From Escherichia coli (lineage in GTDB: Bacteria > Pseudomonadota > Gammaproteobacteria > Enterobacterales > Enterobacteriaceae): a stretch of 64,000 nucleotides of DNA. Positions 26,351 through 26,566 of the stretch are shown here, piece after piece. The notes beneath the pieces were generated by a model. It was not told the origin of the DNA and did not search any database. It was given only the letters and a program-made list of their open reading frames with translations. Location: NCBI RefSeq assembly GCF_003334785.1, contig NZ_QOWV01000002.1; one strand, written 5' to 3'. Position numbers and translations under genes: made by a program. Every line of letters starts with the position of its first letter. Within the stretch, counting starts at the first letter, position 1.

Positions 26351-26566
26351 ATGGAACTGCATTGTCCACAATGTCAGCATGTGCTTGATCAGGATAACGG
26401 CCATGCGCGTTGCCGATCCTGCGGGGAATTTATTGAAATGAAAGCTCTTTGTCCAGACTGCCATCAACCGTTGCAGGTGTTAAAAGCCTGTGGTGCAGTA
26501 GATTACTTCTGTCAGCACGGGCATGGCTTGATATCGAAAAAACGCGTTGAATTCGTGCTGGCTTAA
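26351..26566 (+). CDS. yfgJ: zinc-ribbon protein YfgJ (DUF1407-type)
   Basis: Track ORF 26315-26566 trimmed to ATG at 26351 preceded by GGAGG; 71 aa with CPQC...CRSC and CPDC...C pairs. Confidence 0.85.

Follow-up and report, generated by a model that had tools for sequence, protein, structure and literature searches.

Whether a few nucleotides shared by the ends of two convergent genes tie their expression together, or are simply left over from the loss of the space that once separated them, is the question raised by a small open reading frame (ORF) located in a 64,000-nt stretch of Escherichia coli DNA (RefSeq assembly GCF_003334785.1, contig NZ_QOWV01000002.1), hereafter referred to as the window. 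The ORF, 71 codons long, corresponds to yfgJ (b2510), a gene already described in E. coli K-12, and its stop codon overlaps that of xseA, the gene for the large subunit of exonuclease VII, which is read from the opposite strand. An original prediction, derived from the letters of the window, had presented the product as a four-CxxC double zinc ribbon of poorly defined function, had proposed that the convergent overlap makes the 3' ends of the two messengers complementary and could couple their stabilities, and had called for 3'-end mapping of both transcripts and for a metal analysis of the purified protein. Taken as a whole, the locus is probably best explained as the known yfgJ gene, encoding a two-ribbon protein which may be an adaptor, whose overlap with xseA arose by compaction around a terminator. 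The yfgJ/xseA feature is an ordinary one, in which a gene already known lies at a junction that is compact and has been unstable in evolution. It is of little consequence as it stands: gene, fold, metal sites and overlapping transcripts have all been recorded before.

YfgJ, a small protein with two zinc ribbons

The window is collinear with the chromosome of E. coli K-12, in which yfgM, bamB, der, the 71-codon ORF, xseA (on the opposite strand), guaB and guaA follow each other, and three published 61-nt sequences from strain MG1655 find exact matches in it. The translation of the ORF and chain A of the PDB entry 2JNE ("Hypothetical protein yfgJ", a nuclear magnetic resonance (NMR) structure) have the same sequence (100% identity), and the Salmonella protein of entry 2JRP is 63% identical to it. 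It matches over its full length the family PF07191 (Zn_ribbon_6, "double zinc ribbon"), with an i-Evalue of 1.1e-28 for residues 4-68 against positions 2-66 of a model of 67, and the RefSeq annotation of E. coli genomes names it yfgJ. YfgJ also occurs among the ~400 high-confidence proteins quantified by tandem mass tag (TMT) proteomics (PMC7373196), a detection which indicates that the protein is made in the cell and is unlikely to be rare. The identity with 2JNE, the PF07191 match, the RefSeq name and the proteomic detection together confirm the 71-aa ORF predicted at 26351-26566. The probability that this ORF is a mere chance product, rich in cysteine codons and devoid of any coding role, is negligible, and such a reading is already refuted: its small size, and nothing else, would suggest it, against the solved NMR structures, the Pfam match, the protein detected by TMT, a strong Shine-Dalgarno sequence, and a conservation extending to 80 species with all eight cysteines invariant. 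Translation of yfgJ is not considered to start at an upstream ATG, at 26315, which would open an 83-aa ORF: this ATG lies within a hairpin, it is not preceded by a Shine-Dalgarno sequence, and all homologues begin at the position of 26351.

The eight cysteines of YfgJ (C5, C8, C21, C24, C34, C37, C47 and C54) are distributed in three CxxC motifs and a C47-x6-C54 pair, an organization that departs from the canonical C4 + C4 scheme with four CxxC. The "four-CxxC" label initially given to the protein is thus right as to the eight cysteines in two ribbons and wrong as to the fourth CxxC, in place of which C47-x6-C54 occurs. A true fourth CxxC (C54-x-x-C57, in the context YFCxxCN) is found in distant homologues only, the enterobacterial proteins having G57-H58 at this place, and the pattern of conservation suggests that C47 and C54 make up the second knuckle of the second ribbon. 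All eight cysteines are invariant in an alignment of 81 enterobacterial sequences; when distant and single-ribbon homologues are added, C34, C37, C47, G48 and C54 of the second ribbon stay unchanged throughout the family. According to their titles, both 2JNE and 2JRP were modelled with two Zn+2 bound, which, together with PF07191, bears out the double zinc ribbon and answers in part the call for a metal analysis, the zinc sites of these entries being modelled ones. YfgJ would accordingly be described as a cytoplasmic protein built up from two rubredoxin-like zinc ribbons, each predicted to hold one Zn through four cysteines, namely C5/C8/C21/C24 in the first ribbon and C34/C37/C47/C54 in the second.

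The two ribbons have not been conserved to the same extent. Over the 81 sequences, the mean column entropy amounts to 1.59 bits for residues 1-33 and to 0.20 bits for residues 34-66, a difference which is in part overstated since peptide patterns from residues 41-56 served to collect the loci and inflate the conservation of that stretch. The tail G57-68, which lies outside the retrieval patterns, is likewise essentially invariant, and proteins made of the C-terminal ribbon alone exist. On account of this asymmetry and of these stand-alone proteins, the nearly invariant C-terminal ribbon with its basic β-tail (residues 34-68) is the presumed functional surface of YfgJ, and the N-terminal ribbon would be a variable accessory that retains just its cysteines. 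In the K-12 protein, the N-ribbon deviates from the consensus at H20R and D27F, and also at L30M and E31K, positions that are otherwise ~85-90% conserved, and it most resembles the N-ribbon of Pseudocitrobacter.

The family is a small one: out of 1.84 billion proteins, a profile search at E <=1e-3 retrieved 171 cluster representatives. Some of its single-ribbon members, 54-59 aa long and found in two organisms, are tightly packed between ribD and ribE or ribBA (loci L087, 4001-4165, and L091 and L092, 3501-3680). Comparison of YfgJ with other collections of families gave little: the NCBIfam model NF041197 (dual CXXC small (seleno)protein) scored 21 bits, against a cut-off of 40, and over residues 34-56 only, PADLOC returned no match, and PHROGs returned a single weak match, over the N-ribbon, to a family of unknown function.

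As regards function, the genomic neighbourhood offers the sole recurring clue, and a weak one. Wherever the flank reaches, yfgJ is located 3' of der and on the same strand (80 species of Enterobacteriaceae and Erwiniaceae). The linkage to der extends beyond the Enterobacteriaceae: distant double-ribbon homologues (~40-45% identity) again follow hisS-yfgM-bamB-der, one of them being succeeded by mltF and purL instead of xseA, another being separated by an extra ORF, and one sharing 14 nt at its start with the 3' end of der. Another yfgJ homologue sits in an unrelated context. The literature found to mention yfgJ holds no mechanism for it, in keeping with the statement that the function of the family is poorly defined. 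A swarming defect of yfgJ is said to have emerged from a genome-wide screen by Inoue et al. in 2007, a phenotype that plays no part in the reading given here. YfgJ would most likely be a small adaptor that binds a conserved partner, either a protein or a nucleic acid. Judging from its persistent position 3' of der, the Der/50S-assembly machinery is the leading candidate for this partner, a guess in which little confidence is placed.

The stop-to-stop junction and its variants

The stop codon of yfgJ occupies 26564-26566 and that of xseA is the reverse complement of 26563-26565, so that the convergent overlap of 4 nt announced by the original prediction is real and consists of the shared TTAA at 26563-26566. 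This tetranucleotide lies at the centre of an imperfect palindrome (Table 1), whose inner part reads GTGC-TGGCTTAAT-GCAC, followed by CTTTTT, within an outer CGCG/CGCG stem. The palindrome is bordered by A6 (26537-42) and AT7 (26583-90), so that a two-tier hairpin with a U-run behind it can form on either strand. In a relaxed scan, this hairpin reached -11.1 kcal/mol on the plus strand and -10.1 kcal/mol on the minus strand, with ATTTTTTT (+) and TTTTTTCG (-) coming next. The T-runs located 3' of yfgJ are antisense to the Lys-rich C-terminal tail of XseA (KKSRKKVH). A terminator scan of 25900-27100 called no terminator, the K-12 palindrome included, and a promoter scan of the same segment gave one promoter-like site on the minus strand, which is below the number expected by chance.

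The junction was surveyed in 67 other species for which the ends of both genes could be located, 14 more having no xseA within 4 kb. The two genes overlap in 14 of the 67 species (12 of them by the same TTAA), are separated by a gap of 0-58 nt in 24, and are held apart by an insert of 1.2-3 kb in 29. The TTAA group comprises the Citrobacter freundii complex, Yokenella, Silvania, Lelliottia, Pluralibacter and Enterobacter soli. In the alignment of these junctions, both stops fall in the loop of a perfect or near-perfect palindrome, GCCGGTTTAAACCGGC, followed by TTTTTC, and the T-tract is the antisense of the C-terminal lysine codons of XseA. As a consequence of the full palindrome (e.g., locus L072, 4207-4222), YfgJ and XseA both end in Pro-Val-stop. 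The terminator scan called a plus-strand terminator, and no minus-strand partner, at the Yokenella junction, and one relative with a 33-nt gap possesses a textbook intergenic bidirectional terminator. The same scan missed an obvious AAAAAAGCCGCACTCAGATGCGGCTTTTTTT in locus L048, which is assumed to happen because the stem absorbs the T-run; our own scan detected it on both strands. From this comparison of sequences, the K-12 junction appears as a degenerate homologue of the GCCGGTTTAAACCGGC+T5 terminator of the other genera.

The overlap of 4 nt would be, in this respect, a product of compaction, both ORFs having presumably extended into a shared palindromic terminator hairpin and each of them having its stop codon in the loop (TTAA). 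The hairpin and the T-tract still look like an intrinsic terminator of yfgJ in Citrobacter, Yokenella, Silvania and others. Such an element would limit antisense read-through instead of promoting it, and it would have largely decayed in K-12.

Within E. coli itself, the junction exists in two forms which differ deeply over the block 26282-26760. The K-12 type, in which yfgJ abuts xseA, is carried by 3668 of 5426 complete genomes. The island type, carried by 1665 of them (~31%), shows the order yfgJ'-sinH-sinI-adhesin-xseA, the adhesin being encoded by an 8-kb gene and the whole island measuring 11.5 kb (e.g., NC_017651.1); it corresponds to the "ila" or CS54-like cluster reported between xseA and yfgJ. 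The two genes abut in the window because the window carries the island-free haplotype. Both haplotypes are near-identical through der and begin to diverge abruptly at its stop codon; from there and across the last 200 nt of xseA their identity amounts to 57-80% (a difference of 20-43% over the block), and they continue to diverge as a mosaic up to ~27860. A K-12 type derived from the island type by simple deletion was rejected in view of this deep divergence of the flanks. The yfgJ allele of the island type shares 63% protein identity with that of the K-12 type, the differences being concentrated in the N-ribbon. Compared with the other genera sampled, the K-12-type block reaches ~72-83% identity in each case, and a search for its donor among the 80 species was negative (at most ~83% DNA identity over any segment and 76% for the protein). 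Other Escherichia species have an arrangement without an adjacent xseA. Cis variants explaining differences in yfgJ expression have been described in a preprint (10.1101/2025.06.10.658842) and may simply reflect this dimorphism of haplotypes. Any coupling of the two genes is dispensable, because the island separates them in ~31% of E. coli and inserts do so in 29 of the 67 species, and the junction offers a natural experiment, with E. coli strains in which the genes either overlap or lie 11.5 kb apart.

It seems unlikely that the overlap is a pure accident devoid of any terminator history, in which a T preceding the TAA of yfgJ creates an antisense TAA, xseA ends there once the spacer has been lost (e.g., by deletion of an island), and the palindrome is a side effect of the two basic tails. 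Overlaps of this kind do arise easily after spacer loss, since in Enterobacter the same TTAA overlap of 4 nt occurs between the stop of yfgJ and a different, unrelated convergent ORF of 116 aa. The minus-strand hairpin of K-12 is no more stable than shuffled sequences and went uncalled in the terminator scan, Term-seq lists no 3' end at the junction, and the locus is a hotspot of insertion and deletion, all of which would suit an accident. However, an accident fits poorly with the identical geometry, i.e., a perfect 16-nt palindrome plus T5, encountered in 12 species, which belong to five genera or more, with the classical intergenic bidirectional terminator present at the same place in one relative, and with a K-12 block which, being 20-43% different over 26282-26760, is not a simple deletion derivative. 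Compaction around a terminator is the origin retained here.

In other genera, hotspots of insertion flank yfgJ on either side. In Enterobacter, a POT-family peptide transporter lies between der and yfgJ (locus L012, 2296-3942), and an M4-like metallopeptidase gene together with the 116-aa ORF lies between yfgJ and xseA (L012, 4219-5588), and in Pseudocitrobacter sinH/sinI-like genes are located downstream of yfgJ (locus L003, 4434-7669).

Transcription across the junction

Published coordinates of MG1655 were transferred to the window by the relation genome + window = 2662165, checked on three exact anchor sequences. Among the Rho-dependent regions reported by Adams et al. 2021 (PMC7815308, Supplementary file 2), one located at MG1655 2635510 on the minus strand, antisense to xseA, belongs to the strand of yfgJ (Rho score 3.8, p = 2.3e-6). 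The C/G ratio of 26567-26666 amounts to 1.47, as expected for Rho loading. As these published data show, the yfgJ-strand transcript of K-12 runs ~90 nt into antisense xseA before being stopped by Rho, and the short antisense overlap would be a by-product, not a required regulatory coupling. The complementarity of the 3' ends proposed in the original prediction is borne out by the position of the Rho region, ~89 nt past the stop of yfgJ, and by the listing of the gene pair as an excludon, and the 3'-end mapping has largely been published already (Term-seq and Rho mapping). As for the result once named as a refutation, that both transcripts end before the overlap, it is logically impossible, because both stop codons lie inside the overlap and complete messengers cover it. 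The supplements of the TERMITe Term-seq resource contain no entries for yfgJ or xseA. Elsewhere in xseA, Term-seq places internal 3' ends ~20-57 nt into the ORF, and a hot spot of 21-nt double-stranded RNA (dsRNA) captured by p19 at 27741-27762, ~170 nt from the start (PMC7373196, Table S-file 7), implies antisense transcription in 5' xseA, far from the overlap with yfgJ.

Several points weigh against the explanation preferred here. The K-12 palindrome is weak (RNAfold z of -1.9 on the plus strand and -0.5 on the minus strand) and perhaps does not act as a terminator at all, since the conserved KKR codons of yfgJ and the Lys-rich tail of xseA impose most of the sequence of its arms. Between 5' xseA and the bamB terminator, the two condition lists of PMC7815308 that show the neighbouring entries contain no Term-seq 3' end, which low expression could explain. 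The pair xseA-yfgJ is classed as an excludon by ExcludonFinder. With regard to the supposed partner, about half of the species that have der in the fetched flank show 0.8-3.9 kb between der and yfgJ, the link with der could be inherited synteny alone, and two single-ribbon homologues reside in riboflavin operons (nrdR-ribD-x-ribE/ribBA-ribH-nusB), away from der.

The excludon classification comes from a survey (Nucleic Acids Research 2025, PMC12288877) in which xseA-yfgJ figures among 165 convergent excludons, in at least 50% of 58 MG1655 transcriptomes, the call resting on coverage thresholds only. That the pair forms a functional convergent excludon, in which the 3' ends of the messengers pair or the polymerases interfere so that RNase III or collision makes one gene depress the other, is nonetheless quite improbable. 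Apart from the presence of the pair in the MG1655 "excludome", what speaks for it is a yfgJ-strand transcript that reaches ~90 nt into antisense xseA before Rho, the fact that no canonical intrinsic terminator was called, and some dsRNA captured by p19 over yfgJ. This dsRNA amounts to ~7 reads per million (RPM), which is low compared with the validated cases of the same table (PMC7373196), and in the rnc-14 mutant of RNase III the median level of YfgJ is 0.59x and 0.82x that of the wild type in two sheets, mostly not significant. YfgJ is not de-repressed in this mutant, and there is no sign of a repression of yfgJ by RNase III. Moreover, kilobases lie between the genes in 31% of the E. coli genomes and in 29 of the 67 other species, and the terminator found at the junction in related genera would limit the overlap of transcripts and not promote it. 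The suggestion that the overlap could couple the stabilities of the two messengers finds no support in the unraised YfgJ of rnc-14 and the low dsRNA, nor in the kilobases that separate the genes in 1665 of the 5426 E. coli genomes and in 29 of the 67 species, and the overlap is better regarded as a probable by-product of compaction.

Table 1. Features of the yfgJ locus, in coordinates of the window
Feature	Position	Strand	Remarks
yfgJ coding sequence, 71 aa	26351..26566	+	ATG 26351, TAA 26564-26566
Shine-Dalgarno sequence GGAGG	26339..26343	+	7 nt 5' of the yfgJ ATG; read from sequence
TTAA common to the stops of yfgJ (TAA, +) and xseA (TAA, -)	26563..26566	.	4-nt overlap
Imperfect 40-nt palindrome	26543..26582	.	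CGCG...GTGC-loop-GCAC...CGCG, centred on the overlap
xseA, exonuclease VII large subunit	26563..27933	-	TIGR00237 8.2e-162
Rho termination region, published	26655	+	~89 nt past the yfgJ stop; approximate, 800-nt scoring windows
Block differing deeply between two E. coli haplotypes	26282..26760	.	K-12 type versus island type
Perfect 14-bp stem-loop	26303..26334	+	GCCATTCCCTCTAT-GAAT-GTAGAGGGAATGGC, without U-tract after it; der-yfgJ spacer
der (engA), ribosome-biogenesis GTPase	24809..26281	+	TIGR03594 3.5e-179; RefSeq der; upstream neighbour of yfgJ

Upstream of yfgJ, the stem-loop of the der-yfgJ spacer has a minimum free energy of -27.3 kcal/mol (z = -4.1), and none of 200 shuffled sequences proved as stable. 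Each of the species with a short spacer possesses a strong hairpin of different sequence, followed by a T-run in several of them, as in der terminators, and a search of 26100-26900 against Rfam, with E up to 1, gave no match. The spacer is probably the terminator region of der, leaky or degenerate in K-12, and yfgJ is probably transcribed, at least in part, by read-through from der. Further upstream, an intrinsic terminator occurs after bamB, at 24700-24750, in the form of GGCTCCTGGACAGGGGCC followed by a T-run. A strong Term-seq 3' end has been published at MG1655 2637422, i.e., at position 24743 of the window, and most bamB transcription therefore halts before der.

Wider proposals and likeness to known systems

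A bolder proposal, which has only a slight chance of being correct, would make YfgJ an abundant housekeeping adaptor, whose invariant C-ribbon and tail dock on a core machine, whose N-ribbon tunes lineage-specific contacts, and whose stop-stop palindrome with xseA is a coding-embedded terminator, the lysine codons of each gene supplying the U-tract of the other. Der or the assembling 50S subunit is the best guess for the core machine because yfgJ follows der as far as distant gammaproteobacteria, once overlapping its end. The same ribbon module is also present as a stand-alone protein in the GTP-consuming context of riboflavin operons. The contrast between the C-ribbon and the N-ribbon, together with the link to der, provides a starting point for the study of the conserved and apparently abundant YfgJ.

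Among known protein families, YfgJ is the type member of PF07191 (formerly DUF1407), with which it shares the eight cysteines, the two ribbons, the size of ~70 aa and the stand-alone character. The rubredoxin-knuckle fold is common to YfgJ and to generic zinc ribbons, such as those of TFIIB, RpoP/Rpb12, bL32, eS31, the N-terminus of NrdR and the C-terminal part of Topo I, with weak matches in sequence or structure; HHpred matches have also been noted (PMC7544198). The CS54 island of Salmonella and the "ila" cluster (sinH-sinI-ratA) of extraintestinal pathogenic E. coli (ExPEC) occupy the same junction as the island of the E. coli island-type haplotype.

With respect to the arrangement of the genes, yfgJ-xseA resembles the convergent excludons (PMC12288877) by the convergence, the lack of a spacer and the overlapping transcription. 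It differs in that E. coli can dispense with the arrangement, and in that the rnc-14 proteomics shows no de-repression of YfgJ. The other known element that comes close is the bidirectional intrinsic terminator, which consists of an A-tract, a GC hairpin and a U-tract. The junction of the related genera has the GC hairpin and the T-tract in common with it but, in contrast to the usual bidirectional terminators, the yfgJ/xseA element is embedded in the two coding sequences, its loop containing the stop codons. In K-12, the A6 and T7 runs around the palindrome recall the same organization, in a degenerate form that was not called as a terminator and is devoid of a mapped 3' end.
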